This document shows positions 1,098 to 58,082 of a DNA stretch of 64,000 bases, piece after piece. The translations under genes were made by a program, and so were the position numbers. Origin of the DNA: Gemmatimonadota bacterium (GTDB lineage: Bacteria; Gemmatimonadota; Gemmatimonadetes; Longimicrobiales; RSA9). The notes beneath the pieces are model-generated. The model saw nothing but the letters and a program-made list of their open reading frames with translations. It was not told the origin of the DNA and searched no databases. Positions within the stretch are counted from its first letter, which is position 1. The number at the start of each line of letters is the position of its first letter. The stretch spans positions 38,366-102,365 of the forward strand of contig JBBDRO010000032.1 of assembly GCA_040905425.1 (NCBI GenBank). The letters are read 5' to 3'.

Positions 1098-2153
1098 ATG
1101 AAACGGATTGCGCTCATCCCCGGCGACGGCATCGGCGTGGACGTCACGCGCCAGGCCGCCAGCCTGCTCGGCGCGCTCGCGGACGCCGGGCGGGTGGACG
1201 TGGCGCTGGACACCTGGGATCTGGGCGCCGAGCGCACGCTGCGCACGGGGATCACCATCACCGACGAGGAGATGGCCAGCCTGCGCACGGACTACGACGC
1301 CATCTTCCTGGGCGCCGTGGGGGACCCGCGTATCCCGGACAACCGGCACGCGCGGGACATCCTGCTCGGGCTGCGCTTCAAGCTGGACCTCTACATCAAT
1401 CTGCGGCCCGTGCGTCTGTACGCCCCGGAACTCTCCCCCCTGAAGGACATCGGCGTGGCGGATCTGGATATGGTTATCTTCCGGGAGAATACGGAAGGAC
1501 CGTACGTGGGCATGGGCGGGACGCTGAAGGAGGGTACGCCCGAGGAGGTGGCCACCGAAGTGGACATCAACACGCGCGCGGGCGTGGAGCGGATCATCCG
1601 CGCCGCCTTCGAATATGCGCGGCTCCGGGGGCGCCGGCGGGTCACCCTCACGGACAAGGCCAACGCCATGCCCCACGTGGGCGGCCTGTGGCGCCGGACG
1701 TTCGCGGACGTGCGCGCGGAGTATGCCGGGATCGAAAGCGACGCCGTCTACGCCGACGCCCTGGCCTTCGACCTCGTGCGCCGCCCCGCGCGCTACGACG
1801 TCATCGTGGCCCCGAACCTCTTCGGCGACCTGCTGAGCGACCTGGCGGCGGGGCTGGCGGGCGGGCTGGGCCTGGCGGCGTCCGCCAACCTCCATCCGGG
1901 CCGGCCCGGTCTCTTCGAGCCGGTGCACGGCTCGGCGCCCGACATCGCGGGGACCGGCCAGGCCAACCCGCTCGCTGCGCTGCTCACAACCGCCCTCATG
2001 CTGGAGCAACTGGGTTGGGTGGAGGAGGCCGCGCGCGTGGAGGCGGCGGTGCGGGAGGTGCTGGCCGCCGGTCACACCACGCCGGACCTGGGCGGCACGC
2101 TCACGACGGACGAGGTGGGTGACGCGGTCATCACCGCGGCGCTCGCCACCTGA
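1098..2153 (+). CDS. isopropylmalate/tartrate/isocitrate dehydrogenase family protein
   Basis: 351 aa; MKRIALIPGDGIGVDV N-terminus, LRPVRLY, FRENTEGPY and GSAPDIAGTGQANP motifs typical of the beta-decarboxylating dehydrogenase family; substrate not resolvable by eye. Confidence 0.8.
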   Translation: MKRIALIPGDGIGVDVTRQAASLLGALADAGRVDVALDTWDLGAERTLRTGITITDEEMASLRTDYDAIFLGAVGDPRIPDNRHARDILLGLRFKLDLYINLRPVRLYAPELSPLKDIGVADLDMVIFRENTEGPYVGMGGTLKEGTPEEVATEVDINTRAGVERIIRAAFEYARLRGRRRVTLTDKANAMPHVGGLWRRTFADVRAEYAGIESDAVYADALAFDLVRRPARYDVIVAPNLFGDLLSDLAAGLAGGLGLAASANLHPGRPGLFEPVHGSAPDIAGTGQANPLAALLTTALMLEQLGWVEEAARVEAAVREVLAAGHTTPDLGGTLTTDEVGDAVITAALAT

Positions 2154-2179
2154 TACCACACCTGACCATACGGAGCGGC

Positions 2180-3385
2180 ATGGGCACGCAGGGACACGCC
2201 ACCGACATCGTCTTCCTTTCCGGGCGCCGCACGCCCTTCGGCACCTTCGGCGGCACGCTCAAGGACCACACCGCCACCCAGCTCGGCGCGCACGCGGCGC
2301 GGGCGGCGCTGGAGAGCGCGGGTGTGGCGCCCGAGGAGGTGGGGCACGTCATCTTCGGCAACGCGCTGCAGACCACCTCGGACGCCATCTATCTGGCGCG
2401 CCACGTGGGGCTCCAGGCCGGCTGCCCCAACGAAGTGCCAGCGCTCACCATCAACCGGCTGTGCGGCTCCGGCTTCCAGGCCATGGTCTGCGGCGCGCAG
2501 GAGATCATGTTGGGCCAGGCCGAGGTGGCGTTGGTGGGTGGCGCCGAGAGCATGAGCACGGCGCCGCATGTGGTGCGCGGGGCGCGTTGGGGCCAGCTCC
2601 GCCTGGGGGAGGCCGGGCAGTTCTTCGAGGATCTGCTGTGGGCCTCCCTCACGGACACCAGCTGCAGCCTCTCCATGGCGCAGACGGCCGAAAAGCTGGC
2701 CGACGAGTACGGCATCACGCGTGAGGAAGCCGACCAGGTGGCCTACGAATCCCAGCAGCGCGCGGCGGCCGCCCGTGACGAGGGCCGCTTCGACGCCGAG
2801 ATGGCGCCCATCACCATCGCCTCGCGCAAAGGGGACGTGGAATTTGCCGTGGATGAGCACATGCGGCCGGATGCCTCCCTGGAGGCGCTCGGCAAGCTGC
2901 GTCCCTACTTTCGCAAGGACGGCCTGGTGACCGCGGGCAACGCCAGCGGCATCGGGGACGGTGCCGCCGCCGCGGTGATTGCCAGCGCCGCCTGGGCCGA
3001 GCGCAACGGGCGCACCCCGATCGGCCGGCTCGTCTCCTGGGGCGTGGCCGGCGTGCGGCCCGACATCATGGGCATCGGCCCCGCCCCGGCGGCGCGGCTG
3101 GCGCTCGAGGCCGCCGGCCTGGAACTGGACCGTATGGACCTGGTGGAAGTCAACGAGGCCTTCGCGCCGCAGTACGCCGCGGTGCGCAAGGAGCTGGGGC
3201 TGGACCATGAGAAGACGAACGTGAACGGCGGGGCCATTGCGCTCACGCATCCGCTCGCGGCGTCCGGCGCGCGCATCACCATCCACCTGCTCCACGAGCT
3301 GCGCCGGCGCGGCGCGCGCTTCGGCCTGGGCAGCGCGTGCATCGGGGGCGGGCAGGGGATGGCCGTGATCGTGGAGCGCATGTAG
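2180..3385 (+). CDS. acetyl-CoA acetyltransferase (thiolase II)
   Basis: 401 aa; active-site [27 protein letters not shown] and [13 protein letters not shown] motifs. Confidence 0.92.
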
Positions 3386-3410
3386 CCGCGTCTCTTTCCG
3401 GGAGGTTCCG

Positions 3411-4367
3411 ATGCTGGAGATTCTGATACCCGCGGTGGTGGTGGCGGTGGGCACCATCGTGAGCAGCCTGCGCGTGCTGAAGGAGTACGAGCGGGCGGTG
3501 GTCTTCCGCCTGGGGCGCCTCACCGGCGCCAAGGGGCCGGGGCTCATCTTCCTGCTGCCCTATGGCGTGGAGAAGATGGAGCGGGTGTCCCTGCGCATCG
3601 TGGCCATGGACATCCCGCCCCAGGACGTGATCACGCGGGACAACGTGTCCATCAAGGTAAACGCCGTGGTCTACTTCAAGGTGGCCGACACGGTGAAGGC
3701 CACTATCGTGATCCAGGACTACCTGTTCGCCACCAGCCAGCTGGCGCAGACCACACTGCGCAGCGTGGTGGGCCAGGCGGAACTCGACCAGCTGCTGGCC
3801 GAGCGGGAGCACTTCAATGACATCGTGCGCACCATCATCGACACCGGCACCGACGCGTGGGGGATCGAGGTGACCGCCGTGGAGATCAAGGACATCGATC
3901 TGCCCGCCGAGATGCGTCGCGCCATGGCGCGGCAGGCCGAGGCGGAGCGGGAGCGCCGCGCCAAGGTCATCAACGCGCAGGGGGAGCTGCAGGCCTCCAA
4001 GCAGCTCGCGGCGGCGGCCAAGATGCTGCAGACGCAGCCCGCGGCCATCCAGCTCCGCTATCTGCAGACGGTCTCCGAGATCGCCACGGAGAACAACTCC
4101 ACCACCCTCTTCCCGATCCCCATCGACCTGTTCAAGCCGTTCATCGAGAAGCTCGGCCGGACGATGGGTGGCGCCGAGGGCCCGGACGAGGTGGATGAGT
4201 CCCTGGACGTGGACCCGAATGATCCGGCGCTGCTGGCGCCGCCCGCGCCGCTGCGCGATCACAAGTCCCTGCGGCCGGCCGCGGAGAAGGCCGCCGCGGC
4301 GCATGCCGCCGCCGAGCGGAAGTCCGCTGGCCGCGATGACCATGACGTCGGCGATCGGTCGGGTTGA
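3411..4367 (+). CDS. SPFH/band-7 (stomatin-like) membrane protein
   Basis: 318 aa; N-terminal TM, then [15 protein letters not shown]...[16 protein letters not shown] and the [19 protein letters not shown] coiled region typical of stomatin/HflKC-type SPFH proteins. Confidence 0.88.
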
Positions 4368-5267: not shown

Positions 5268-6158
5268 ATGATGGCCAGGATCGAACGGGTGGGTGTGCTG
5301 GGATGCGGGCTCATGGGGAGCGGGATCGCCGAGGTCACGGCCAAGGCCGGCATCGAGACGTGGGTGCGCGAGGTGAATGATGACCTCGTGGCAAAGGGGC
5401 GCGGCCGCATCGAGAAGAGCCTGGGCCGGGCAGTGGAGAAGGGCAAACTGGACGCGGCCGAACGGGACCGTGTGCTGGAGCGCATCCACTTCACCACGGA
5501 GCTCGGGGAGCTGGCAAGCGTGGAGCTGATCATCGAGGCCGTGACCGAGGACCTGGCCATCAAGAACGAGATGTTCGGGGCGCTGGACGAGGTGTGCGGC
5601 GCCGACACCATCTTTGCCAGCAATACCAGCTCGCTCACCATTGCCGACATGGCCGCCGCCACGGGGCGCCCCGGCCGCTTCGTGGGCTTGCACTTCTTCA
5701 ACCCCGTACCCGTGATGAAGCTGGTGGAAGTGGTGCGCACCATTGCCACCGACGAGGACGCCTACACCGCCGCGCTGGACTTTGCCCGCGCCATCGGCAA
5801 GGAGCCGGTGGAGGCCAAGGACACCTCGGGCTTCGTGGTGAACCGCCTGCTCATCCCCTACATGCTGGACGCCATCCGCGCCCTGGAGACGGGCGTGGCC
5901 ACCATCACGGACATCGACAAGGCCATGACGCTCGGCACCGGCTACCCCATGGGCCCCTTCGTGCTGTCCGACTTCGTGGGCATCGACACGCTCCACAAGG
6001 CGGCGGAGATCATGTACGAGGAGTTCCGCGAGACACGCTACGCCTCACCGCCGCTGCTCAAGCGCATGGTGTCCATGGGGTGGTACGGCCGGAAGAGCGG
6101 CCGCGGCTTCTACGACTACTCCGGGGAGAAACCCGTGCCCGTGGAACTGGGTCTGTAA
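5268..6158 (+). CDS. hbd: 3-hydroxybutyryl-CoA dehydrogenase
   Basis: 296 aa; Rossmann motif VGVLGCGLMGSGIA, SNTSSL, GLHFFNPVPVMKLVEV and GFVVNRLL motifs of 3-hydroxyacyl-CoA dehydrogenases. Confidence 0.9.
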   Translation: MMARIERVGVLGCGLMGSGIAEVTAKAGIETWVREVNDDLVAKGRGRIEKSLGRAVEKGKLDAAERDRVLERIHFTTELGELASVELIIEAVTEDLAIKNEMFGALDEVCGADTIFASNTSSLTIADMAAATGRPGRFVGLHFFNPVPVMKLVEVVRTIATDEDAYTAALDFARAIGKEPVEAKDTSGFVVNRLLIPYMLDAIRALETGVATITDIDKAMTLGTGYPMGPFVLSDFVGIDTLHKAAEIMYEEFRETRYASPPLLKRMVSMGWYGRKSGRGFYDYSGEKPVPVELGL

Positions 6159-6252
6159 GCGACGTCCCCCCGCACGTCCATGGCACGCGCCGGATCCCGG
6201 CCCCGCCGGAGCCGCGCGGCGCGCCGGTGAGGCGGCCGGGCATCGTCGCTTG

Positions 6253-6286
6253 AAAAAAAACAGGGCCTCCCCGCGGGGAGGCCCTG
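6253..6286 (-). terminator. intrinsic terminator of the NSS transporter gene
   Basis: Perfect 12-bp arms CAGGGCCTCCCC/GGGGAGGCCCTG (6261-6272/6275-6286), followed on the minus strand by T8 (6253-6260); lies 23 nt after the stop of the 6309..7742 gene. Confidence 0.8.
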
Positions 6287-6308
6287 CGCACGCGCGGGCG
6301 GAGCGGCC

Positions 6309-12319: not shown

Positions 12320-12784
12320 TCAGAAGGGCAGGTCGTCATCCTCCACCTCGAAAGGCGAGGGCGCTGCCTGCCCGCCGCCCTGCTGTGGACGCCGTTGCGG
12401 GCTCTGGTCGTAGCTCCCGCCGCCCCCGCCCCCGCCCCCGCCGGACCCGCTCTGGCTCCCCAGCATCACCATCTCCCGGACCACGATGTCCGTCCAGTAG
12501 CGCGGCTGGCCCTTGTCATCCTCGGTCTGGCTGTACTCCAGGCGGCCTTCCACGTAGAGGCGGTCCCCCTTGTGGATGTACTGCTCCACCAGCTCGGCCA
12601 GCTTGTCGAAGAAGGTGAGGCGGTGCCACTCGGTCTTCTCCTGCTGTTGTCCCGAGCGGTCCGAGAAGGTGCGGTTCGTGGCCAGGCTGACCTTGGCGAT
12701 CTTGGTGCCGCCGCCGGTGGTGCGCATCTCGGGCTCCGCGCCCACGTTGCCGATGAGCATGACCTTGTTCAGGGACCGAGCCAT
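12320..12784 (-). CDS. ssb: single-stranded DNA-binding protein
   Basis: Start at ATG 12784 (MARSLNKVMLIGNVGAEPEMR); OB-fold motifs, Gly-rich linker and canonical acidic tail DDDLPF; the longer track ORF (to 12940) runs through a tandem repeat and is rejected. Confidence 0.92.
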   Translation of the reverse strand: MARSLNKVMLIGNVGAEPEMRTTGGGTKIAKVSLATNRTFSDRSGQQQEKTEWHRLTFFDKLAELVEQYIHKGDRLYVEGRLEYSQTEDDKGQPRYWTDIVVREMVMLGSQSGSGGGGGGGGGSYDQSPQRRPQQGGGQAAPSPFEVEDDDLPF

Positions 12785-12841: not shown

Positions 12842-12915
12842 GGGCGCCGCCCGGGGGTAGGCGGGCGCCGCCCGAGGGTAGGCGGGCGCCGTCCGGGGGA
12901 AGCGGGCGCCGGCCG
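12842..12915. repeat. about 3.5 tandem copies of a 21-bp GC-rich unit
   Basis: GGGCGCCGCCCGGGGGTAGGC (12842-12862), GGGCGCCGCCCGAGGGTAGGC (12863-12883), GGGCGCCGTCCGGGGGAAGC (12884-12903) and a partial fourth copy; lies in the divergent ssb / AI-2E intergenic region. Confidence 0.9.
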
Positions 12916-12982
12916 GCGCGACGGCGCGAGCCCATGGCACACCGCGTGCTTCCCAGCCAGCCGACTTCAGCCCAGGAGGGTC

Positions 12983-13872
12983 ATGAGCCGCACCGAGCCC
13001 GCACCGCCCACGCGCGTGGACCTGGCCTTCGTGGCCCGCGCCACGCTGATCGTGATCGGTCTCTGGGCGCTGGCGAGCGGGCTCTGGCTGGGCCGCGACA
13101 TCCTCTTCGTCACGCTCTTCGCGCTGCTGGTGGGGCTCTTTCTCTCCCTCTTCGTGGGTCCGCTCGTAAAGCTGGGCGTGCCGCGCCAGGTGGCGGCGCC
13201 GCCGGCATGGAGGAGCAGGTGCGCACCCGCATGAACCAGCAGCTGGTGGAGGTGGTGAGCGGCTCCCTGCCGCTCCTGAACAACGTCTTCGGTATACTCT
13301 CCGGCATGTTCCTGGTGATCTTCGCGGGCTTCTTCGTGGCTGTCTCTCCGGCCACCTACCGGCGCGGCATGGAGCTGCTCGTGCCCGCCAGCCATCGCGC
13401 CCTGGCCGCCGACGTGTTGTCGGAGATTGCCACCACGCTGCGCCATTGGATCAAGGGCGCGGCCACGGCCATGCTCATCATCGGCGTGCTGAACGCCGTG
13501 GGCCTGACGGCGCTGGGTGTGCCCGCGGCGCTGGCGCTGGGCCTCTTCGCGGGCCTCATGGCCTTCATTCCGTTCCTGGGGCCCGTCCTGGGGATGATCC
13601 CCGCGCTCGGCGTGGCCCTCACCATTTCACCGCAGAAGGCGCTCTACGTGTTCTTCCTCTACCTGGCCATCCAGGTAGTGGAATCCAACCTCATCACGCC
13701 GCTCCTCATGAAGGGCATGGTCAAGCTGGAACCGGCGCTGACCATCCTCTTTCAGGCCTTCATGGCCGCCCTCTTCGGCATCCTGGGCCTGGCGCTGGCA
13801 GTGCCTCTGCTGGCCATCCTCAAGGTGCTGGTGAACCGGCTCTACGTGGAGCGCGTGGCCAACGCCCACTGA
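12983..13872 (+). pseudogene. AI-2E (PerM/YdiK) family transporter, apparently disrupted by an internal deletion and frameshift
   Basis: The N-terminal ~70 aa (MSRTEP...FVGPLVKLGVPRQVAA) are in frame 2 and stop at 13234. The rest (from about 13200: ...YRRGMELLVP...GLFAGLMAFIPFLGPVLGMIP...) is in frame 1 to 13872. Together they total about 296 aa, against 419 aa for the intact paralogue at 49987. Confidence 0.5.
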
Positions 13873-14718: not shown

Positions 14719-14796
14719 GTCCCCCACTCCTCCTGTTCATCTCTCAAGCGACGTCCCCCATTCACCATCATCCGCGCGCCGGCTCCGCGGCGCGCG

Positions 14797-15618
14797 CTAC
14801 GCACGCACGGCGCGCACTACCTCCACCAGACGCCGTACCCGGTCGGCTTCCACCGGCCCGCCCGCGCGTCCGTCCCGCTGCAGCGCGCTCCCCACGATGG
14901 CGCCGTCGGCCAGCGGCAGGAGCGCGGCCGCGTTCTCCGGGCCCAGTCCGCTGCCCACGAGCAGCGGCGCCTCGGGCACGGCCGCGCGCGCGGCGCGCAG
15001 GCTCTCGGTGTCCGTGGCGGCGCCGGTGGCCTCCCCTGAGACCACCAGCGCGTCGGCGCGGCCGCGTTCCCAGGCGTCGGCGGCGGCCCGCTCCACGCTC
15101 AGGCCGTGCGGCGGCACGGCGTGCTTCACGAGCACGTCGGCCAGAATGGCCACCTCCACGCCCAGCGCGGCACGCACGCGCAGCGTCTCGTGCGCCCGGC
15201 CCTCGAGGGTGCCCTGGTCGGTGAGCATGGTGCCGGTGTGCACGTTGACGCGGATGAAGCCTGCGCCGGTGGCGGCGGCCACGCCGAGCGCGGCCCGGGC
15301 GTCATTGCGCAGCGCGTTCACGCCTACGGGGAGGGATACCGCCCCGCGCACCAGGCGCGTGAGCGCGGCGAGCGCCGCCACCGTTTCGGCCGGGAGGGCG
15401 CCCGGATGGAAGGGCACGTCGTGGTAGTTCTCCACCAGCACCGCGTCGGCGCCGCCCGCCGCGAGCGCCTCGGCGTCGCGTCCGGCCCGGTCCTCCACGG
15501 CCGCCATGCTGCCACCCCACCCCGGTGCGCCCGGCAGCGGCAGGAGGTGGATCATGCCGATGACGGCGAAGGGGGCGTCGAAGAGGAGGGGGACGCGCGC
15601 GAGCGGGTCGCGGTTCAT
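14797..15618 (-). CDS. BtpA/SgcQ family protein
   Basis: 273 aa from ATG 15618 (MNRDPLARVPLLFDAPFAVIGMIHLLPLPGAPGW...); TIM-barrel BtpA signature. The 810-aa track ORF is an upstream shadow extension. Confidence 0.8.
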   Translation of the reverse strand: MNRDPLARVPLLFDAPFAVIGMIHLLPLPGAPGWGGSMAAVEDRAGRDAEALAAGGADAVLVENYHDVPFHPGALPAETVAALAALTRLVRGAVSLPVGVNALRNDARAALGVAAATGAGFIRVNVHTGTMLTDQGTLEGRAHETLRVRAALGVEVAILADVLVKHAVPPHGLSVERAAADAWERGRADALVVSGEATGAATDTESLRAARAAVPEAPLLVGSGLGPENAAALLPLADGAIVGSALQRDGRAGGPVEADRVRRLVEVVRAVRA

Positions 15619-15768: not shown

Positions 15769-18408
15769 ATGGCCGATCCGCCCCGCCTGACGCACCTGCC
15801 CACCCATGAACGCACCCTGGACAACGGCCTCAGGGTCATCGTGCGGGAGGCCCACGACGCGCCCGTGGTGAGCATCGTGACGTACGTGCAGGCCGGCTAC
15901 TTCGACGAGCCGGACACGCTGGTGGGCATCAGCCACGTGCTCGAGCACATGTACTTCAAGGGCACGGAGCGGCGCGGCCCGGGGGACATGGCGCGGGAGA
16001 CTAAGGCGGCGGGGGGCTACCTGAACGCGGGCACCATCTACGACCATACCTCCTACTACACCGTGCTGCCGGCCGCCTCGCTGGAGCAGGGGCTGGACAT
16101 CCAGAGTGACGCGCTGCGGGCCTCCGCCATCGACCCGGACGAGCTGGCGCGTGAGCTCCAGGTCATCATCCAGGAGGCCAAGCGGAAGCTGGACACACCG
16201 CCAGCCGTCTCCCAGGAGAGCCTCTTCGAGACGCTCTTCGATGTGCATCGCATCCGCCGCTGGCGCATCGGCAAAGAGGAGATGCTGGCCGGCTTCACCC
16301 GGCAGGACGTGTGGGACTTCTACCGCCAACTCTACCGCGCCCCCAACGTGATCCTGGTAATCGCGGGGGACGTGGAGCCGGCGGAGGTGTTTGCCCTGGC
16401 CGAGCGCTACTACGGTGAGCTGCCGGGTGGGCAGCCGGGGCGGAGTTCGGGTCCGGAGGAGCCGCCGCGCACGGGCCTGCGCTGCCGCGAGATGGAGGGG
16501 GAGATCACGCGCGCCTACCTGGAGTGGGGGTGGCGCACGCCCGGCGCCCTGCACGAGGACACGCCGGCGCTGGACGCGCTCTCGGTGGCGCTCGGCCAGG
16601 GGCGCGCCTCCCGCCTCTACCGGGCCGTGCGCGAGGCGGGGCTGGTCAGTGCCGCCAGCGCGTTCAACTACACGCCCGGCCAGGTGGGCGTCTTCGGCCT
16701 GAGCGCCGAGCTCGACCCGACCGGCACCGCGGCGGCGGTGGACGCCATGGCCGCCACCGTGCGGAGCTGCGTGGAGCGGCCCATCACCAGCGCCGAGGCC
16801 GCGCGCGCGCGCACCATCCTGGAGGCGCGCATGCTGCGCCGCCTGGAGACCGCCGAGGGCCAGGCCAACCTCATTGCCGAGTGGGAGGCGGAGGGGGACT
16901 GGCGGCTGGCGGATGACTACCTGGCGCGCATCCAGGCGCTCACCGCGGCCGATCTGGTGCGGGTGGCGGAGCGCTACCTGGCGGTGGCGCACGCCACCGT
17001 GCTGCTCTACCGCCCGCGCGCCGCCGCGGCCACCGGGTGGGACGCGGCCGGGATGGCCGATCGTCTCCGGGACGCGGGGCTGCCAGCGGGCGTGGAGCTT
17101 CCGGGGGACGTCGCTTTCCCGGAGACGGCCGCGCTGGCGCCCGCTGCGGTGCGGACCGAGCGCGTGGAGGATGGGGTCCACTTTTTCGGCACGGAGCACG
17201 GCGCGCGGGTGGTGGTGCTGCCGCGCCACGGCGCGCCGCTGGTCACGCTGGCGCTGGCGGTGCGCGGCGGGGCGCTGGAGGAGGACGCCGCCACCTCGGG
17301 GATCACGGGGCTGCTGGCGCGGGCGTCCGTGAAGGGCACCACGTCACGGAACGCCGAGGTCATGGCCAGCGCCACCGAGGCGCTGGGCGGCTCCATCGGG
17401 GCCGACGTGGGCTCCGACACGCTGCACTGGCGGCTCTCGGTGCCCGCTCGGCACTTCGCCACGGCGACCGACCTGCTGCTGGACACGGCGCTCCGGCCCG
17501 CGTTGCCCGCCGCGGCCGTGGCGCGCGAGCGGGAGGTGGCGCTGGCGGAGCTGGCCCAGCTGCGCGATGACATGGGCCGCTACCCGGGGCGCCTGCTCAT
17601 GCAGGCCGCCTTTCCCGGCCACCCCTACGGCTGGGCGCTGGAGGAGCGCGAGGCTGCGCTGGCGGGGTTGGAGCGCGACGCCGTGGCGGCGTGGCACCTG
17701 CGGCGCGTGCGCCAGGCCCCAATCACGGTGCTGGTGGTGGGGGACGTGGAGCCCGAGGCGGCGGCCGCGCGCGTGGCCGCCCATCTGGGCGTGCCCGACG
17801 GCGTGGCGGAGGAGCCGCGGCGGCCGGCACCGCCGTGGCCCGCCACGCCGCACAGTGAGGCCGTGCAGCTGGACAAGGCGCAGACGGCGCTGGCGCTGGG
17901 CTTCCCCGGCCCGGCCCGGAACGAGGCCGACGTGGAGGAGCTGCGCGTGCTGTCCGCGGCCGTGGCCGGCCTGGGCGGGCGCATGTTCGAGGAGCTGCGC
18001 AGCCGGCGCTCGCTGGCCTACAGCGTGGCGGCCTATCCCGTGGCCCGCTGGCGGGCCGGGTGCTTCGTGGCCTACATAGCCACCTCACCGGAGCGCGAGG
18101 CGGAGGCGCGCGCGGGGCTGCTGGAGGAGCTGGAAGGGCTGCGGCGCGAGCTCCTGCCGGAGGAGGAGGTGGAGCGCGCCCGCCGCTACCTCATCGGCGC
18201 CTGGCAGATTCGCCAGCAGACGAACGGCGCCCGCCTCTCCGACCTCATGGACGTCCTGCTGGTGGGGGAGGGACTGGAGGAGCTGCGCAGCTTCGAGGCA
18301 CGCATCCGCCGCGTCACCGCGGAAGGCATGCGGGCCGCCGCGGAGCGCTGGCTGGACCCCGCCCGCATGGTGGAGGGCGTGGTGCGGGGCAGCGGCGGCG
18401 GCAGGTAG
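15769..18408 (+). CDS. M16 family zinc peptidase, fused double unit (PqqL-like)
   Basis: 879 aa from ATG 15769; HxxEH zinc motif (GISHVLEHMYFKGT) in the first half and a second M16-like half (GLLARASVKGT...). The track ORF start at 15106 is a shadow extension. Confidence 0.88.
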   Translation: MADPPRLTHLPTHERTLDNGLRVIVREAHDAPVVSIVTYVQAGYFDEPDTLVGISHVLEHMYFKGTERRGPGDMARETKAAGGYLNAGTIYDHTSYYTVLPAASLEQGLDIQSDALRASAIDPDELARELQVIIQEAKRKLDTPPAVSQESLFETLFDVHRIRRWRIGKEEMLAGFTRQDVWDFYRQLYRAPNVILVIAGDVEPAEVFALAERYYGELPGGQPGRSSGPEEPPRTGLRCREMEGEITRAYLEWGWRTPGALHEDTPALDALSVALGQGRASRLYRAVREAGLVSAASAFNYTPGQVGVFGLSAELDPTGTAAAVDAMAATVRSCVERPITSAEAARARTILEARMLRRLETAEGQANLIAEWEAEGDWRLADDYLARIQALTAADLVRVAERYLAVAHATVLLYRPRAAAATGWDAAGMADRLRDAGLPAGVELPGDVAFPETAALAPAAVRTERVEDGVHFFGTEHGARVVVLPRHGAPLVTLALAVRGGALEEDAATSGITGLLARASVKGTTSRNAEVMASATEALGGSIGADVGSDTLHWRLSVPARHFATATDLLLDTALRPALPAAAVAREREVALAELAQLRDDMGRYPGRLLMQAAFPGHPYGWALEEREAALAGLERDAVAAWHLRRVRQAPITVLVVGDVEPEAAAARVAAHLGVPDGVAEEPRRPAPPWPATPHSEAVQLDKAQTALALGFPGPARNEADVEELRVLSAAVAGLGGRMFEELRSRRSLAYSVAAYPVARWRAGCFVAYIATSPEREAEARAGLLEELEGLRRELLPEEEVERARRYLIGAWQIRQQTNGARLSDLMDVLLVGEGLEELRSFEARIRRVTAEGMRAAAERWLDPARMVEGVVRGSGGGR

Positions 18409-19407: not shown

Positions 19408-20559
19408 ATGCGGCACCCCGAGCACGCGCTGGCCCTGCGGGAGCTCCGCCTCCGCGATTTTCGCAATTTTGCCGCACTCGACCTGGAATTTCCCCCCGGG
19501 GGGGCGGCCGTCATCGGTGACAACGGCTCCGGCAAGACCAACCTCCTGGAGGCGGTCTACTACCTGGAGATCTTCCGCTCCTTTCGCGGCGCCGCCGACG
19601 ACCAGCTCGTGCGCTTCGGCGCGGACTCGTTCTTCATCCGCGGGGTCTTCGAGGAGGTGCGCTCGGGGGAGCGCCACGAAGTGAGCGCCGGCTACGAGCG
19701 GCGCACCCGCACCAAGCGCGTGGCCCTCGACGGCGTGGAGCCGGAGCGCCTGGGGGACGCCCTGGGCGGCCTGGGCGCCGTGGTCTTCTCGCCCTCGGAC
19801 GTGGCGCTGGTGGCGGGCGCGCCGGGCGAGCGGCGGCGCTTCCTGGACATCGTGCTGTCGCTGAACGCGCGCGGCTACTTCGACGCGCTGCAGCGCTACC
19901 GCGGCGCGCTGCGCCAGCGCAACGCCACGCTCAAGGCGGGCACCGGCAGCGCGCACCTGGCGGCCTGGGACGCGGCGCTGGTGGCCGGCGGGGCGCGCGT
20001 GATCGCGGAGCGGATGCGCTGGGTGGCCGAGCACGCCGCCGCGTTCGGCGAGCGCTTCGCGGCCATCGGCGCCGGCGGCACGGCGGAGCTGGCCTACGAG
20101 GGCAGCGTGCGGCTGCCGGCCGAGCCGGGCGCGGCGAGCGTGGACGCGGCGGCCGCGGCCTTCACGGCCGAGCTGGCGCGCGTGGCCGAGCGGGAGCGGG
20201 AGCGCGGCATGACGCTCGTGGGGCCGCACCGGGACGACCTGGCCATCCGCTTCGGTGGTACGGAGGAGGGTGTGGGACTGCGCGAGTTCGGCTCAGGCGG
20301 GCAGCAGCGCACCGCCGCCATTGCGCTGCGCATGATCGAGGCGGAGACCATCCGCGCGGCGCGGGATCGCGAGCCGGTGGTGCTGCTGGATGACGTGTTC
20401 GCCGAGCTCGACCCTGGCCGTTCGCGCCGCATCCTGGCGCTCATGGAGGAGGAGGAGCGCGGCCAGGTACTGCTCACCGCGCCCAAGGAGAGTGACGTGG
20501 AGCTGCGTGGGGGCTCGCTGGCGCGGTGGCGCATTGCCGCCGGGCGGATCGAGACGTGA
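19408..20559 (+). CDS. recF: DNA replication and repair protein RecF
   Basis: 383 aa; Walker A GDNGSGKTNLLEAVYYL, signature SGGQQRT and Walker B VVLLDDVFAELD. Confidence 0.92.
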   Translation: MRHPEHALALRELRLRDFRNFAALDLEFPPGGAAVIGDNGSGKTNLLEAVYYLEIFRSFRGAADDQLVRFGADSFFIRGVFEEVRSGERHEVSAGYERRTRTKRVALDGVEPERLGDALGGLGAVVFSPSDVALVAGAPGERRRFLDIVLSLNARGYFDALQRYRGALRQRNATLKAGTGSAHLAAWDAALVAGGARVIAERMRWVAEHAAAFGERFAAIGAGGTAELAYEGSVRLPAEPGAASVDAAAAAFTAELARVAERERERGMTLVGPHRDDLAIRFGGTEEGVGLREFGSGGQQRTAAIALRMIEAETIRAARDREPVVLLDDVFAELDPGRSRRILALMEEEERGQVLLTAPKESDVELRGGSLARWRIAAGRIET

Positions 20560-20858
20560 AGCGGGAGCGGGATCCGGAGCCGCTGGGTGACGCGCTGCAG
20601 CGCTTTCTGGAGGAGAGCGCCATCGGCGAGAAGATGGAGAAGGCCTCCATCGTCCCGGAGTGGCCGGAGAAGGTGGGGGAAGCCATCGCCGCGGTGACCA
20701 CGCCGCTGCGCGTCTCGGGCGGCACGCTGCTCGTGGCGGTGCGCTCCAGCGGCTGGCTCATGGAGCTGCGCATGATGGAGCGTGAGATCCTGGGCCGGCT
20801 GAACGAGGGCAGGAAGCGGGGGCGCATCGAGCGCATCCGTTTCGTGATGAGCGAATGA
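20556..20858 (+). CDS. DUF721 (DciA-like) protein
   Basis: 100 aa from GTG 20556, overlapping the recF stop (GTGA); PLGDALQRFL...W..VG..IA..T.P and the conserved recF-DUF721-gyrB position. Confidence 0.75.
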   Translation: MKRERDPEPLGDALQRFLEESAIGEKMEKASIVPEWPEKVGEAIAAVTTPLRVSGGTLLVAVRSSGWLMELRMMEREILGRLNEGRKRGRIERIRFVMSE

Positions 20859-20977
20859 GGTGCGGCCCCGGTGCGCGGGAAGCGCGCCGGCGGATGCGCG
20901 GGGACGTCGCTTGAAAATGCGCTGTTGAAGGCGTAACCCCGGGGGTGTTCCGGGGTAGTATTCATGGTTGATCCTGA

Positions 20978-25156
<4,179 letters not shown>

Positions 25157-30386: not shown

Positions 30387-31475
30387 ATGTTCAAGCGACG
30401 TCCAGCCGCCGTGTTCCTGGCGGCATCGATCCTCCTGGCCCTAGCCGCCTCGGCGCTCGCCCCTGCCGCTGCCGAGGCGCAGCGACCTCGGGAGCCCGTG
30501 GAGCGTAGTCTCCGCGACGTCCTGGGCGGCGTGCCCTACACCGCGGCGGACAGCATGGCCCAGCGCATCGTGGAGCGCCTGGACTTTGACAGCTACCGGG
30601 AAATCATCCGCGGCCTGGCCTCCTTCGGCGACCGCGAACAGGGCACCGAGCGCAATGCCCGCGCCGTCGACTGGATCGAGCAGCAGCTCCAGGGCTGGGG
30701 CTACGAGACCGAGCGGATCCACTACGAATTTCGGGGTGAACCGCGCGAGGAGGTCTACGCCACCAAGGTGGGCAGCACCACCCCCGGCGAAATGTACATC
30801 CTGGGCGCCCACATGGACGGGCGCGGCGGCGGCGAGGCAGTCAACGACGACGCGTCGGGTACGGCGCTGGTCATGGAGATCGCGCGTGTTCTGGCCGGAC
30901 CCGAGGTGCGGACCGACCGATCCATCCGCTTCGCACTGTGGAACAACGAGGAGACCGGGCTGAACGGCGCCCGGGCTTACGTGGAGCAGCGCGCGTCTAT
31001 GCAGGGCGTCGAGGATCCCCCGGGCTCCGGCCGCTTTCCTGAGCCACGCTGGATCGGGATGATCCAGCACGACATGATGATGTGGGACCACGGCAACCCG
31101 GTGCAGCACACGCAGGCCCTGAACGCCGACGTGGATATCGAGTTCCAGCTTGTATCCGAGAAGGCGGCGGAGTCGGCGGAACTGGCGCTCGAATTACTGA
31201 ACGCCAACCGCAAGTTTGCCACGGACTATCCGGCGGCCATGAGCAACGCCATGCGGAGCACCGATTCGGGCGCCTTCCAGGACCATGTGGCGTCCGTGAG
31301 CCTGCGTGAGAATCGCCGCGTCTACGAGACGGGCAATGCGGCCAACCCGCACTGGCATCAGCCCACGGATCTCCTGGTTACGTTCTCCGAGGCTGATTAT
31401 CGTCTAGGTTTCAACGCCACCCAGACTACGCTGGGCGCCGTCTCCGTCCTGGCAGGGGCGCGCATCCAGCAGTAG
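30387..31475 (+). CDS. M28 family metallopeptidase (secreted)
   Basis: 362 aa; signal peptide; GAHMDG and NDDASGTALVMEIARVLA zinc-ligand motifs; WNNEETGLNGARAY. Confidence 0.88.
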   Translation: MFKRRPAAVFLAASILLALAASALAPAAAEAQRPREPVERSLRDVLGGVPYTAADSMAQRIVERLDFDSYREIIRGLASFGDREQGTERNARAVDWIEQQLQGWGYETERIHYEFRGEPREEVYATKVGSTTPGEMYILGAHMDGRGGGEAVNDDASGTALVMEIARVLAGPEVRTDRSIRFALWNNEETGLNGARAYVEQRASMQGVEDPPGSGRFPEPRWIGMIQHDMMMWDHGNPVQHTQALNADVDIEFQLVSEKAAESAELALELLNANRKFATDYPAAMSNAMRSTDSGAFQDHVASVSLRENRRVYETGNAANPHWHQPTDLLVTFSEADYRLGFNATQTTLGAVSVLAGARIQQ

Positions 31476-31553
31476 AGCGTAAGCGACGACGGCGGGTCCG
31501 TGCGCACGCGGGCCCGCCGTCATCCCGGCCTTTCCTGCTTCCGGAGCGGGACC

Positions 31554-32861
31554 ATGCAGGCGCGCGGCCCATCTCCTTCCTCGATCCGGACCCTCGCGGT
31601 GCCGGCATTTCTGCTGGGCGCGCTGCTTGCCAGTGCCTGCGGCGACCCCCCCGCCGACCGCCTGGCCGCCTACGTCAACGTCCGCGACAGCGCCGGCATC
31701 CAGATCGTGGAGAATGGCCCGCTGGCCAGCGTGGACACGCTGGGGATCATGGTGGACAGCGCCGCGCGGTTGCGCATCGGACTGGTGGACGGGGACGCGC
31801 CTTACGTGTTCAGCCGCATCGTGGGCGCCACGCGGCTCGCGGACGGGCGGGTGGCCGTTGCGGACCAGCGCGCCGCCGAGGTGCGTTTCTTCGATGGTGA
31901 GGGGCGGTTCCTTGCGGCGGTGGGGGGCGCCGGCCAGGGGCCAGGGGAATACACCCTCTTCTCGGCCATGCATCCGTTGCAGGCTGATTCGCTGTTGATC
32001 GTTGATCATGAAGGAAACCGCTGGCATTTTTCGGATGGCACCGGCACGCCTGTGCGGACACTCCGTGCCGTCCGTCACTCCCCTGGCGAGGATCCTTCTC
32101 GATCCCCGTATCACGTGCGCGGCAGCTACACGGACGGCACGCTGCTGGTGTCCCGGTCTGTACCCGGCTGCACCGGGGAGCCATCATTGTTCTGCGCCGA
32201 TTCCGTCCGGCTTCGCCGGGTCACACGCCGGGGGGAGGTACGCGCTGATTTCGGGGTCGTCCCGCGCTGGCGCCGCTACTTCGATCGGTCGGCGGTCAAT
32301 GGCAGGAACACGATAACGCTGGCGGCCGTGTTCTACCCGCAGGTCAGCTGGGCCGTGGCCGGCATGCGCACCTATATCGGCGACGGCGAGCGCTTCGAGA
32401 TCCGGGTGCACGGGCCCGAAGGTCGTCTCGAGCGTCTCATCCGCGTTGACGCGCCGCCTGAACGCTATCCCGCCGAAGGCCCCACCATGCCGTTGGCCGC
32501 AGACGCCACCGCCGAGCAGCGCCAGCAGCACGCGCGGATGCTCGGTGTGACGGAGCGTGCGCCGAAGCCCGACCACCTGCCGGTGTTCACCAGCCTCGTG
32601 ACCGACGAGCTCGGCAACCTGTGGGTCCATCTCGTCGGGGGTCCGAACAGCGGACTGGGCACCGGCATGCGTTGGGCGGTATTCGACTCAGAAGGCGAAC
32701 TCCGCCATCTGGTGCGAACGCCTGTCCTCAGTACTCGCAGCCCGATGACCGGCCGCGGGGCACCCGAGATCGGCGCGGACTATCTTCTCACCGAGGCCAC
32801 CGACTCCTTCAACGTGCCCGTGGTCGACGTCTATCCCCTCGGCCGACGCAACGGTGGCTGA
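31554..32861 (+). CDS. NHL/beta-propeller-type lipoprotein, paralogue 3 (tandem array member)
   Basis: 435 aa from ATG 31554; lipobox LASAC; GGAGQGPGEY motif; 5' ~290 nt about 96% identical to paralogue 4. Confidence 0.8.
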   Translation: MQARGPSPSSIRTLAVPAFLLGALLASACGDPPADRLAAYVNVRDSAGIQIVENGPLASVDTLGIMVDSAARLRIGLVDGDAPYVFSRIVGATRLADGRVAVADQRAAEVRFFDGEGRFLAAVGGAGQGPGEYTLFSAMHPLQADSLLIVDHEGNRWHFSDGTGTPVRTLRAVRHSPGEDPSRSPYHVRGSYTDGTLLVSRSVPGCTGEPSLFCADSVRLRRVTRRGEVRADFGVVPRWRRYFDRSAVNGRNTITLAAVFYPQVSWAVAGMRTYIGDGERFEIRVHGPEGRLERLIRVDAPPERYPAEGPTMPLAADATAEQRQQHARMLGVTERAPKPDHLPVFTSLVTDELGNLWVHLVGGPNSGLGTGMRWAVFDSEGELRHLVRTPVLSTRSPMTGRGAPEIGADYLLTEATDSFNVPVVDVYPLGRRNGG

Positions 32862-34173
32862 TCTACGGCGCCGGCTCGCTGGGGTACGGTTGCGTGTCGG
32901 CTCACATGCTGCACTGTTACTGGTCGCGCAGCTTACCGCCGCCTGCGGCGACCCGCCCGCGGACCGACCGGCCGCCTACGTCAATGTCCGTGACAGCGCC
33001 GGCATCCAGATCGTGGAAAACGGCCCGCTGGCCAGCGTGGACACGCTGGGGATCATGGTGGACAGCGCCGCGCGCGTGCGCATCGGGCTGGTGGACGGGG
33101 ACGCGCCTTACGTGTTCAGCCGCATCGTGGGCGCCACGCGGCTCGCGGACGGGCGGGTGGCCGTTGCGGACCAGCGCGCCGCCGAAGTGCGTTTCTTCGA
33201 TGGTGAGGGGCGGTTCCTTTCGGCGGTGGGGGGGCGGGGCAGTGGCCCCGGGGAGTACATCAATTTCTATCGCGCCTTCCGCATGCCTGGCGATTCTCTA
33301 CTCATCGTGGATCACGAAGGGGGGCGCTGGCATTTTGTCGACACCCAGGGGATGGGGGCGCAGACACAGCGGCCGACCGGGTACACGTCGGCCCGGACGG
33401 GCTCTACGCAGCGGCACCGGGTCGAGACCACCTACGCGGACGGCGCCCTCCTGGTGCGGGAACCGCTTACCGACTGCTTGTCGCGGGCGATGGAAGCCGC
33501 TGGCGTATGCACCGATTCCCTCCGCCTGATGCGCATTTCACGGAACGGAGAGGTGCTCGCTGACTTCGGCGCCGTTGCGGGCCAGCAGGCCTACCGCGCG
33601 CGCATGGCGTCCGGTGTCTTCAGCGTTGTCCTGGAATTCTACGGGCAGGGCGCGTGGGCAGTGGCGGGGACGCGCACGTATATCGGAACGGGCGATGCGC
33701 TGGAACTCCGCCGCTTCGGTCCAACCGGCGCTCTGGAGCAGATCATCCGCGTGGACGAGGCCCCGGTGCCGACGTCAGCCGGCTTCGATCCTACCGAGGT
33801 GCCGGACTCAATGTTCGAGGATGAAGAAACGCGGGATAGGCATGCAGAGTGGCGCGCCATGGCTCTGGAGGCGCCAAAACCCGCTGGTCACCCCATCTTC
33901 GAAGCATTGGTGGCTGATGCAACGGGTAGTATCTGGGTCCGCCTGACCCGCGCGACCGGAGCGGCACTGGGCCACGGCCTGCGTTGGGCTGTAATCGACT
34001 CCACGGGTACGCTCCGGCACGTGGTCCGAACGCCCCCGCTCATGCTGCCCGCATTCTTCCCGGCGGGCAGCGGGATCGAGATCGGCAAGGATTACCTGAT
34101 GGCCCCCGGCATTGGAGACTACCAGGTGCCGGTGGTGGACCTCTATCCTCTCGTCCGACGAGACGATGGCTGA
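32854..34173 (+). CDS. NHL/beta-propeller-type lipoprotein, paralogue 4 (tandem array member)
   Basis: 439 aa from GTG 32854, overlapping the upstream stop (GTGGCTGA); lipobox LTAAC; GGRGSGPGEY motif. Confidence 0.78.
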   Translation: MADLRRRLAGVRLRVGSHAALLLVAQLTAACGDPPADRPAAYVNVRDSAGIQIVENGPLASVDTLGIMVDSAARVRIGLVDGDAPYVFSRIVGATRLADGRVAVADQRAAEVRFFDGEGRFLSAVGGRGSGPGEYINFYRAFRMPGDSLLIVDHEGGRWHFVDTQGMGAQTQRPTGYTSARTGSTQRHRVETTYADGALLVREPLTDCLSRAMEAAGVCTDSLRLMRISRNGEVLADFGAVAGQQAYRARMASGVFSVVLEFYGQGAWAVAGTRTYIGTGDALELRRFGPTGALEQIIRVDEAPVPTSAGFDPTEVPDSMFEDEETRDRHAEWRAMALEAPKPAGHPIFEALVADATGSIWVRLTRATGAALGHGLRWAVIDSTGTLRHVVRTPPLMLPAFFPAGSGIEIGKDYLMAPGIGDYQVPVVDLYPLVRRDDG

Positions 34174-35473
34174 GGCCCGGAGGCGGCTACCATGCCGGAG
34201 GACGCGACCGGGCGCACAGGCCGGGCCTGTACTGCTTGTCCTGCTGGCCGCCGCGTGCGGCCAGCAGGCCGCCGACCCCCTGGCCGCCTACGTCAACGTC
34301 CGTGACAGCGCCGGCATCCAGATCGTGGAGAACGGCCCGCTGGCCAGTGTGGACACGCTGGGGATCGTGGTGGACAGCGCCGGGCGCATGCGCATCGGAC
34401 TGGTGGATGGGGACGCGCCGTACCTCTTCGAGCGGATCGTGGCGGCCACCCGGCTCAGCGATGGACGCATTGCCATTGGTGAATCCGGCAGCGCCGAGAT
34501 CCGCTTTTTTGATGATGAGGGCCGTTTCCTGTCGGCGGAGGGCGGCAAGGGCGGCGGTCCGGGTGAGTACGTCAACTTCTACAACTTTCATCCGTTGCGG
34601 GCCGATTCCTTGCTGATCGTGGATTATGAGGGTCTGCGCTGGCACTTCGCCGGCAGCGACGGCGTGCCGGGGTGGCGGCGGGAGGCGCCGCGCTACCCGC
34701 CCACGCGGGGCACCTACTCTCCAAGCTACCGCCTGCGGGACACCTATGCCGATGGCACCCTGCTGGTGTCCCGCGGGGTGCCCTCCGGCTGCCCGCCCTA
34801 CCAGCCCGATCTGAGCGTCCTCTGCACCGATTCCATCCGGCTCCTGCGCATGGACCGCGCGGGCGAGGTGCTGGCGGATTTTGGTGTTAGCGCCTCCACC
34901 ACGGTGTATTCCTGGCGCGCGGCCGGCGGTCCAAGCATTAGCCTGACCAATCTGTACGGGGACGGCCGTTCCCTGGTGGCCGGGATGCAGACGTACATTG
35001 CCCACGGGAGCGTGCTGGAGCTGCGTCGCTTTGATCCCGATGGACGCCTCGTGCGGATCGTACGCATTGCGGAGCCGGCTCATCCGATGCCCGAGTCATG
35101 GCCGATGCCGCCCGTCACGGATGAGGAGAGTCGGATCCTCGCGGCGCGCTTGCAGGAGGCCTTCGAGGCTGCGCCCAAGCCGCCCCATTTCCCGATGTTC
35201 ACGGACATCGTGACGGAGCGCGTTTCCGGTAGCCTGTGGATCCGCCTGGCTGCACCGCCCGGGCAGGAGGCGCGGGCAGGACTGCGTTGGGCCGTGGTGG
35301 ACTCCGCCGGCGTCCTGCGGCACGTGATCCGTACACCCAATCTTGCGGGGCCGTCACCCTTCAGCCTGGTGCCCACGATAGAGATCGGCCAGGACCACCT
35401 CCTGAACATCGCTCGCGACTCGTTCCAGGTGCCGGTGGTGGACCTCTACCCCATCGTGCGCCGGGAACCGTAG
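34166..35473 (+). CDS. NHL/beta-propeller-type lipoprotein, paralogue 5 (tandem array member)
   Basis: 435 aa from ATG 34166, overlapping the upstream stop (ATGGCTGA); lipobox LAAAC; GGKGGGPGEY motif. Confidence 0.8.
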   Translation: MAEARRRLPCRRTRPGAQAGPVLLVLLAAACGQQAADPLAAYVNVRDSAGIQIVENGPLASVDTLGIVVDSAGRMRIGLVDGDAPYLFERIVAATRLSDGRIAIGESGSAEIRFFDDEGRFLSAEGGKGGGPGEYVNFYNFHPLRADSLLIVDYEGLRWHFAGSDGVPGWRREAPRYPPTRGTYSPSYRLRDTYADGTLLVSRGVPSGCPPYQPDLSVLCTDSIRLLRMDRAGEVLADFGVSASTTVYSWRAAGGPSISLTNLYGDGRSLVAGMQTYIAHGSVLELRRFDPDGRLVRIVRIAEPAHPMPESWPMPPVTDEESRILAARLQEAFEAAPKPPHFPMFTDIVTERVSGSLWIRLAAPPGQEARAGLRWAVVDSAGVLRHVIRTPNLAGPSPFSLVPTIEIGQDHLLNIARDSFQVPVVDLYPIVRREP

Positions 35474-37372: not shown

Positions 37373-37566
37373 GCGGCCGATCGCGAGCGGCGTGAGCCGG
37401 CATCACCGTGGCAGGGTGCCATGGCCAGGGAGGCCCCGCGCACGCGCAGACGAGCGAAGTGCAGGGCGGGCGCGTCGCGCACATGATCCGGCGGCCCCGC
37501 GCATGCGCAAGCGGGCGGGGCCCAGGAACGATGATGGGTGCCGCGGAAGGTGACGCCCCTCGTCGC

Positions 37567-38121
37567 TTACCCGATCTCGACGAGTCCTTCGTACATGGGG
37601 TTGGTCACGATGTCCCCGTCCTCGTTGACCACCACGCGGTCCCACGGGAAGATGGCGGTGGCGTCCGTCTCCAGGGCGTAGAAGTCGGGGCGGTGGCCGC
37701 CCACCTTCACCAGGCTCGTGGCCGTGCGGATCTCCTCGGGACCGACCTGGCGGAGGGCGTTGGTGGCCATGCGCAGCGTCTCACCCGAGGTGCATACCTC
37801 GTCCACGATGAGCACGCGGCGGCCCCGCGCCTCCTTGGGCGCGGCGGAGAGGATGCGCGGCCGTGCTGCGGGGGTCATGCCTTCCACGTCCCGGCTGATC
37901 TTGAGCGAGAAGAAGTCCTTGCGGAGGATCGAGGCCACCACCGCGCCGGGGATCACGCCGGCCTTGGCAATGCCCACGATGATCTCGGGCTGCCAGCCGC
38001 TGCGCGCTACCTTGAGCGCCAGGCCGCGACAGAGCTCGCCGAAGAATTCCCAGCCCATATCCAGCACGCCGTTGTCGGGCGTGCCACCTGCGCGGTTGTC
38101 GGCCAGACCAGGGGCGAGCAT
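37567..38121 (-). CDS. phosphoribosyltransferase (purine PRTase-like)
   Basis: 184 aa from ATG 38121; PRPP-binding motif RRVLIVDEVCTSGETL. The 390-aa track ORF is an upstream extension. Confidence 0.8.
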   Translation of the reverse strand: MLAPGLADNRAGGTPDNGVLDMGWEFFGELCRGLALKVARSGWQPEIIVGIAKAGVIPGAVVASILRKDFFSLKISRDVEGMTPAARPRILSAAPKEARGRRVLIVDEVCTSGETLRMATNALRQVGPEEIRTATSLVKVGGHRPDFYALETDATAIFPWDRVVVNEDGDIVTNPMYEGLVEIG

Positions 38122-58051: not shown

Positions 58052-58082
58052 CCGCGCGCCGGACGTGGACGGGCGTCGTCGC

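Follow-up and report, generated by a model that had tools for sequence, protein, structure and literature searches.

A lineage-specific DNA-level repeat or recognition tag at gene ends in a Gemmatimonadota genome

Why should one octamer, AAGCGACG, recur at the ends of genes in a bacterial genome of ~70% G+C, and there repeatedly supply the stop codon? The question is raised by a stretch of 64,000 nucleotides (nts) from a Gemmatimonadota bacterium (contig JBBDRO010000032.1), the whole of which is referred to here as the window. Gemmatimonadota abound in soil and have hardly any genetics, and full-text searches of the literature found no description of the motif or of Gemmatimonadota intergenic repeats. 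The motif is a real, lineage-specific repeat or recognition tag at the level of DNA and stands at gene ends. The element is an unusual one, being unstructured, mostly solitary, free in its orientation, flush with stop codons and the supplier of TAA stops that are otherwise rare.

Counting both the octamer and its complement, the window has 13 copies (~0.2 per kb), seven on the forward strand and six on the reverse. An earlier note on this DNA had counted 12 copies against about 2 expected; the enrichment holds, and the count was one short, the copy at 35024(−) having been missed. In 100 dinucleotide-preserving shuffles the expectation is 2.5 ± 1.6 with a maximum of 7, and none of the 100 reaches 13. 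The top enriched 10-mer of the window, TCAAGCGACG/CGTCGCTTGA, is present six times where an order-3 Markov background predicts 0.05. As the remaining enriched k-mers are all coding-sequence effects, the motif is the sole intergenic repeat word in the window. Eight of its copies are intergenic, about 30-fold over expectation and in accord with the eight previously placed at or outside gene boundaries, and five are coding. One-mismatch variants of the core are not enriched, and a profile search with nhmmer gave no further strong match that lacked the exact core.

These figures leave a by-product of base composition, or of frequent peptides such as K-R-R and S-D, with practically no claim. It is true that the five coding window copies read S-D or K-R-R, or are antisense, and that coding counts are close to expectation. 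However, the shuffles never attain the observed number, and the eight non-coding copies share up to 21 nts of flank. For the intergenic copies chance is refuted, and they likewise refute codon usage (F-K-R-R or S-D) as the full explanation, which the earlier note had named as a possible refutation.

The window copies are an unbiased sample, not having been fetched by a motif search. Further copies came from a metagenome scan with TTTYAAGCGACGAYGCCCG, which gave 29 hits, nine of them from the single sample Ga0214473 (70–74% G+C). These nine loci, seven new and two that overlap the window, belong to a relative at ~92% nucleotide identity to the window, and European Nucleotide Archive (ENA) and Joint Genome Institute (JGI) contigs of the same relative were added to them. 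In 136 kb of DNA from the lineage and this relative, intergenic DNA has 19 copies in 12.5 kb against ~0.4 expected, nine of the 19 having been used to fetch loci, and coding DNA has 6 copies in 123.6 kb against 1.7–4.6 expected, which is near chance. The unseeded flanks of the relative’s loci have ~0.07 copies per kb. Proteins exactly matching those of the window occur in the Gemmatimonadota metagenome-assembled genome (MAG) GCA_040879335.1, with homologues annotated as Longimicrobiales. The recurrence of the copies in independent same-species assemblies, at identities of up to 100%, shows that they are not assembly artefacts. Pfam and precomputed annotations agree with the gene names used here (hbd, the SNF/NSS transporter, the M28 peptidase, the PRTase-domain protein, the AI-2E transporter, PBP1A and the recF-dciA-gyrB cluster). 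An approximate gene call based on third-position G+C (GC3) gives 51 genes for the window, whose GC skew is positive throughout and monotonic. Eighteen intergenic copies were aligned, and three more were recognised later (L082_4740 and two in L120; such handles denote fetched loci).

The 12 copies called forward, which point the same way as the gene upstream, start 0 (five copies), 5, 8, 9, 10, 50, 57 and 62 nts past the upstream stop, so that nine of the 12 are within 0–10 nts. The five at zero distance lend their own TAA as stop codon to hbd, the PRTase-domain gene, PBP1A, ftsA (L103) and fumC (L120, just beyond the window end). Position −1 is T in all five stop-overlapping copies and otherwise mostly C. 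TAA stops are very rare in the window. Four of the 51 called window genes have one, and three of these four are the motif’s own. In the six reversed copies of co-directional spacers the core is 25–49 nts from the upstream stop. At 58077, L089 and L086_3846 the gene on the other strand ends in a TAG, which appears as CTA exactly 25 nts beyond the core. The reversed offset, which the earlier note did not register, points to a unit of ~35 bp, not one of 8–13 bp, that abuts stops in either orientation.

In the window the motif is present in three of nine convergent spacers, five of 43 co-directional spacers and none of nine divergent spacers, and each of those five co-directional spacers is 60 nts or longer, as 21 of the 43 are. 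Of some 18 intergenic copies overall, five are in convergent spacers, and two copies of the relative are in divergent ones. Only in co-directional spacers is orientation informative. There, five copies are forward and six reversed, and this near equality argues against a signal at the 3′ end of RNA and for an element at the DNA level. Canonical terminators of hairpin-plus-T type are almost absent from this DNA (one or two in the 60 kb of the window that were scanned), and among the window copies only 6244(−) adjoins an intrinsic terminator, with the motif after it. In L080 a short hairpin precedes the T-run. Between the copy at 51257 and the next gene there is a promoter-like stretch (51290–51360; TTGCGC, 17 nts, TAGCGT), unchanged in the 92% relative, so that the motif there stands past the upstream stop and ahead of the downstream promoter.

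The copy at the end of hbd (6153–6189, + strand; core 6157–6164) has its TAA at 6156–6158 as the hbd stop and a B-type flank, TCCCCCC. It is the left member of an inverted pair. The right member, on the side of the SNF/NSS transporter gene (6219–6259, −; core 6244–6251), carries the full consensus, TTTTTTTTC-AAGCGACG-ATGCCCGGCC, and lies directly after the U-tract of that gene’s terminator (6260–6287, −), a hairpin with a 12-bp stem followed by T8 that is context and outside the repeat family. The two cores are 79 nts apart, each co-oriented with one of the two convergent genes. The copy between the BtpA and aminotransferase genes (14742–14799, +; core 14746–14753; B-type flank) is reversed in a co-directional spacer of 69 nts, which runs from the BtpA stop (CTA at 14797–14799) to the aminotransferase start (14727). 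Reversed too is the copy between dciA and gyrB (20880–20916, −; core 20905–20912), 46 nts past the dciA stop in a co-directional spacer of 140 nts. Three copies are forward: that of the M28 peptidase gene (31477–31513, +; core 31481–31488), which is 5 nts past a TAG stop and is followed by a strong local hairpin; that of the PRTase-domain gene (37536–37572, −; core 37561–37568), whose TAA at 37567–37569 is the stop and whose flank is AGGGGCGTCACCTTCC; and that of the AI-2E transporter gene (51253–51289, +; core 51257–51264), 10 nts past a TGA stop and with the full consensus. At PBP1A (58052–58088, −; core 58077–58084) the TAA at 58083–58085 is the stop, the copy fills the entire 31-nt spacer between two convergent stops, and the CTA 25 nts past its core is the TAG stop of a pyridine-nucleotide oxidoreductase gene (58049–58051). 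The earlier note had described five of these copies as co-oriented and within 0–10 nts of a stop, three TAAs as stops, a sixth copy as following the transporter terminator, 14746 and 20905 as antisense 5′ of the aminotransferase gene and gyrB, and 6157 and 6244 as an inverted pair between convergent genes; its description was accurate on every one of these points.

The coding copies comprise two in sense within genes, at 1736–1743 (+; an isocitrate/isopropylmalate dehydrogenase-family gene, reading ..E S D A.., and probably a chance or codon-level match) and at 24238–24245 (+; the LAGLIDADG intein of gyrB, reading ..V F S S D E..), and two that are antisense, at 17109–17116 (−; within an M16 peptidase gene, with a TCCCC flank) and at 35024–35031 (−; in the third of three tandem paralogous genes). 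The fifth coding copy is in sense at the 5′ end of the longest open reading frame (ORF; 30393–30400, +), where it makes up codons 3–5 of M-F-K-R-R if the start is the ATG at 30387. This core may instead belong to a 5′ spacer, since the codon-model call starts the gene at 30411.

Paired copies are the exception. A second inverted pair is in L120 (12485–12641, with cores at 12485 and 12634; same species, 125–281 nts beyond the window end). There TAAGCGACG is the fumC stop and a reversed full-consensus copy follows 141 nts downstream. An inverted partner within 260 nts was found in two exact and two partial cases among ~20, most copies being solo. The interiors of the two inverted pairs are unrelated, and both look like a unit of 80–140 bp bounded by inverted AAGCGACG.

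How far does the unit extend beyond its octamer? The core is invariant by construction, as copies were gathered through the exact core, and the informative part is the flanks. With the copies of the 92% relative included, the consensus is tTTY-AAGCGACG-AYGCCCGKC, with TCCCC as a minority flank, and position-specific conservation runs from −4 to ~+16, also among copies that did not serve as search seeds. Nine of 18 copies have a GCGCGC box, at +24 to +28 counted from where the core begins. Similarity among copies fades 16–30 nts from the core, and the conserved core end together with the frequent GCGCGC box gives a unit of ~20–36 bp. The copies fall into subfamilies. The 21-mer TTTTCAAGCGACGATGCCCGG is identical at 6236–6256(−) and 51252–51272(+), AAGCGACGTCCCC is found at 6157, 14746, 17109(−) and 20905(−), and TAAGCGACGACG at 31480 and 58077(−), all of which the earlier note had recognised. 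Likewise ACGCCCGGCACGCT is common to L080 and L103, and GTCACCTTCC is at the same offset in L088 and the window copy 37561. These shared subfamily flanks are 14–24 nts long, and with the extended consensus they point to copying. Secondary structure does not contribute: RNAalifold predicts 0 pairs for the 18 copies and the mean folding z-score is −0.27, on which grounds a structured RNA or a repetitive extragenic palindromic (REP) sequence was rejected. Rfam has no hit at gathering score in the window, and relaxed E-values give only generic terminator-hairpin hits near 6260–6287.

Relatives set the range of the motif and the rate of its loss. In the 92% relative the copies at 1736, 6157, 6244 and 51257 are intact, that at 6157 with its core kept and its flank changed to TCGCAAC and that at 6244 with an identical 21-mer. 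At 58077 the core is disrupted to AAGCTCTGCGACG within 160 nts that are otherwise identical, and at 14746 it reads AGGCGACG, next to a 78-nt indel. Two of the six comparable intergenic copies are thus dead, about what neutral decay would predict, and conservation by itself is no proof of selection. A relative at 81% identity (L119) has no copy in 4.2 kb. Another (L077), whose Hbd is 77% identical as protein, has none in 21 kb and no analogous repeated motif after its stops. Conservation in relatives, as raised in the earlier note, extends to the 92% relative and not to the sequence available for L119 or L077. In 185,579 species genomes, a collection from which the source genome is apparently missing, the 19-mer turned up solely as single hits scattered over different phyla. 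Within the limited sequence of relatives available, the comparisons indicate that the motif is lineage-restricted.

That the motif acts as RNA, being transcribed and directing termination, endonucleolytic processing or stabilisation of the mRNA upstream, was one option in the earlier note and is now scarcely tenable. The nine forward copies that begin 0–10 nts past the stop of a co-oriented gene would suit it, as would the short T-run ahead of the core, the one copy after a canonical terminator and the convergent pairs, which can give each gene a co-oriented copy of its own. However, six of the 11 copies in co-directional spacers are reversed, the T-run usually has no hairpin before it, two copies are in divergent spacers, and there is neither a conserved structure nor an Rfam match. 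A binding site with a function for the host, where a lineage-specific protein would recognise ~20 bp just past the stop at the ends of transcription units, is possible though unlikely; the site might serve, for example, as a roadblock-type terminator, as an insulator between units or as a topology site for gyrase or topoisomerase. The protein-binding option of the earlier note is compatible with the sequence features, the motif being linear, with an invariant 8-bp core, graded flanks, no structure and no rule of orientation. It is stop-proximal even so, nearer the upstream stop than the downstream start in eight of 11 co-directional spacers. Such spacers are long when they carry the motif (at least 69 nts), which suggests unit boundaries, and the absence from the nine divergent window spacers, the paucity of canonical intrinsic terminators (one or two), the retention of a 21-mer amid flank changes and the unchanged length of the PBP1A spacer are further points in its favour. 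On the other side, roughly three in four spacers downstream of a stop have no motif, the relative has two copies in divergent spacers, the disruption of two of six orthologous copies in the 92% relative is close to what neutrality would give, close relatives are without any copy in the sequence available, and no candidate protein is known.

The remaining option of the earlier note was an element like the DNA uptake sequences (DUS) of Neisseriaceae or the uptake signal sequences (USS) of Pasteurellaceae. A competence receptor would then prefer DNA with the motif, and biased uptake with recombination would drive its accumulation in permissive sites. This is improbable, and equally so is its corollary, that a naturally transformable Gemmatimonadota lineage has evolved a third, independent family of uptake sequences outside Neisseriaceae and Pasteurellaceae. 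Several species of Neisseriaceae are reported to have 1,200–4,300 DUS copies per genome (PMC3630211), a multi-mismatch origin by recombination is described for the DUS of Neisseria (PMC2397512), and about half of DUS and USS are in predicted terminators (bioRxiv 10.1101/2025.10.24.684340). The majority of Neisseria DUS are intergenic and they are stringently conserved; intragenic positions of DUS are described as common. The motif resembles these systems in its short, non-palindromic, invariant core with weaker extended flanks, its occurrence in both orientations, its accumulation in permissive 3′ spacers and beside a terminator, and its occasional inverted pairs where two genes converge (6157/6244 and L120 12485/12634). 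It has no halo of near-matches and is specific to a lineage, as a dialect would be, and the orthologous PBP1A site differs by multiple substitutions with no indel, the manner in which new uptake sequences arise. In these respects, placement, pairing, lineage specificity and the lack of a length change at one orthologous site, the motif is compatible with such an element. Other features weaken the case. The density of ~0.2 per kb, from the 64-kb window count, is about 5-fold below the figure of about 1 per kb for DUS and USS, and there is essentially no coding excess. The paired copies are 79–141 nts apart and do not form a terminator stem, and the subfamily flanks of 14–24 nts, which are longer than those of uptake sequences, suggest copying. 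Two of six orthologous copies are lost in a close relative, a near-neutral rate, and the motif is absent from 4.2 kb of the 81%-identity relative. The phylum is a different one and no receptor is known.

What is favoured, with a probability of about 0.35, is a lineage-specific family of short interspersed DNA repeats without structure, of which the motif would be the conserved end; these repeats would be largely selfish or neutral, copied or homogenised between sites and recognised by some protein. It is the confinement to intergenic DNA, the subfamily flanks, the capture of stop codons, the restriction to one lineage and the near-neutral loss that speak for this repeat family, and a largely selfish or neutral repeat is slightly more likely than a site with a host function. 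The element would act as double-stranded DNA that a sequence-specific protein recognises. New copies would arise, or existing ones be homogenised, by templated copying between sites, whether through recombination, conversion or a transposition-like process. They would survive only in the permissive places of a compact 70% G+C genome, between a stop and the next promoter or a convergent gene. A unit that begins T-AA and in some cases ends C-TA could come to lie flush against ORFs and supply their stop codons. On the opposite strand all copies have in common a conserved 3′ end, ..GGGCRTCGTCGCTTG, with a variable A-run after it, and 5′ of this end the similarity is lost at varying distances; a more exotic possibility, and an improbable one, is that the copies are 5′-truncated retro-copies of a master RNA.

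Several observations weigh against a family of selfish or neutral repeats. The 21-mer at 51257 is unchanged in the 92% relative although bases on both sides have mutated, which favours selection on a functional site. None of the six intergenic sites comparable with that relative shows an insertion polymorphism. In L119 the spacer at PBP1A has the same length (31 nts) without the motif (TTCTAGGGTCCCACGTACG versus TTTTAAGCGACGACGCCCG, 11 of 19 positions identical). Either the motif arose there by substitution on the side of the window, or L119 once had a copy that has since decayed; the equal length speaks for such changes by substitution and hardly for the simple insertion of a discrete element. 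Terminal inverted repeats beyond the octamer, a target-site duplication, a hairpin and a sharp second boundary were sought among the copies and not found, and no transposase or RAYT-like candidate was seen in the available sequence: the Pfam families of those genes that were checked, or that came annotated with the fetched contigs, include no Y1 transposase (RAYT). The sequence examined for this lineage and its closest relative amounts to ~200 kb only, nine of the extra copies were ascertained by the motif itself, and gene boundaries in the extra loci are approximate, being calls of a codon-model caller of our own that was trained on the window, with Pfam on some genes only.

Other known repeats offer partial parallels to the proposed repeat family. 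REP sequences and their REPIN doublets, mobilised by RAYT transposases, are likewise abundant, extragenic, lineage-specific and at gene 3′ ends, in both orientations, sometimes as inverted pairs and with a short head. REPs are defined by an imperfect palindrome, a stem-loop, after a GT[A/G]G head. The motif, in contrast, has no conserved hairpin and, in 18 copies, no GTAG at a fixed position, GTAG being present only where a TAG stop abuts. Miniature inverted-repeat transposable elements (MITEs) such as the Correia elements of Neisseria are also small, non-coding, interspersed intergenic repeats that may overlap gene ends, but the copies of the motif are mostly solo and lack terminal inverted repeats past the octamer, target-site duplications and similarity over a whole length. 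Mycobacterial interspersed repetitive units (MIRUs) are tandem, orientation-locked units of 40–100 bp with small ORFs, and their edges overlap flanking stop and start codons. Of the dRS3/NIME repeats of Neisseria, dRS3 is a palindromic intergenic repeat of ~20 bp and a target of proteins or recombinases. The motif shares with MIRUs and dRS3 its shortness, its intergenic position and edges that overlap stops, and differs in being neither tandem-locked nor palindromic. Chi and the FtsK-orienting KOPS sequences are over-represented octamers too, at ~1 per 5 kb. The motif differs in that eight of its 13 copies are intergenic and in having no strand skew (7 to 6) despite uniform GC skew, the grounds on which the earlier note had rightly set such elements aside. 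An intrinsic terminator differs in having a hairpin and U-tract, which the motif does not contain, and reversed copies of the motif exist. There are also resemblances that we take to be coincidences, probably: CAAGCG is common to the motif and the Apl-type USS ACAAGCGGT, the opposite strand of the motif resembles mucDUS (GTCGTCTGAA versus GTCGCTTGAA), and the consensus resembles the 5′ end of E. coli 23S rRNA (GGTTAAGCGAC...GATGCCCTGGC). An Rfam search of one locus found no match to large-subunit rRNA.

Further candidates were tried and rejected. A promoter on the opposite strand, with CGTCGCTTGAAA as −35, with CGTC as an extracytoplasmic function (ECF) sigma factor −10 or with the −24/−12 elements of sigma-54, misfits by eye in its spacing and downstream hexamers; many copies face into convergent genes, and promoter scans had no site at any copy. 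A transcription-factor site is at odds with the five of ~18 intergenic copies that are convergent and with the empty divergent spacers of the window (0 of 9). Pairing of upstream sequence with the GCGCGC box to form a hairpin is seen at 58077 only and is not general. A TA target-site duplication fits the TAAGCGACG...CTA copies, but the left edge is TC rather than TA in 12 of 18. A small ORF beginning with the ATG of AAGCGACGATG fails, as the triplet is ACG in half of the copies and such ORFs as there are prove to be antisense artefacts. In favour of a Rho utilisation site, 16 of 18 copies are mildly C-rich over the 25 nts that follow the core, but reversed copies are so too. An origin in a phage or plasmid found no favour, a scan of viral contigs having given only unrelated coding hits in low-G+C phages.

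A tag of ~20 bp at roughly a quarter of gene-end spacers would provide a handle on a new sequence-specific DNA-binding, recombination or uptake protein, and would be usable as a marker for binning and strain tracking. It also bears on how genes end in a genome almost without canonical terminators, and a repeat that can supply rare TAA stops in a high-G+C genome matters for the annotation of gene boundaries. Were it an uptake signal, the phenomenon would extend to a new phylum; were it only a selfish repeat, it would still be unusual in being unstructured, solo and flush against stops.

Some other features of this DNA deserve mention. About 955 nts of the window (12896–13851, with an ORF of ~310 amino acids) have no counterpart in the 92% relative, and the 78-nt indel (window 14797–14813 versus L076 16028–16107) shifts the end of the BtpA reading frame. 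In L077 a tandem (GGGATGA)n repeat at 12360–12440 is directly past the SNF transporter gene. In the NCBI MAG assembly feoB is represented by two separate gene calls, and ~290 nts do not align to the window (window 54374–54664 versus L001/L120), a difference that probably stems from assembly or from a frameshift. Three tandem paralogous genes of ~430–450 amino acids are at 31500–35473 (+) and have near-identical stretches such as TCCACCATGATCCCCAGCGTGTCCACGCTGGCCAGCGG; the one tested, at 31500–32861, had no Pfam match. The recF-dciA-gyrB cluster (19408–25156) suggests that the chromosomal origin region may be near, the sign of GC skew being constant within the window. Its gyrB (20999–25156, +) encodes a product of 1385 amino acids with an intein inserted past the Toprim region; the intein has splicing domains, a LAGLIDADG homing-endonuclease domain and a helix-turn-helix (HTH), and the coding copy of the motif at 24238 is within the endonuclease part of this intein.

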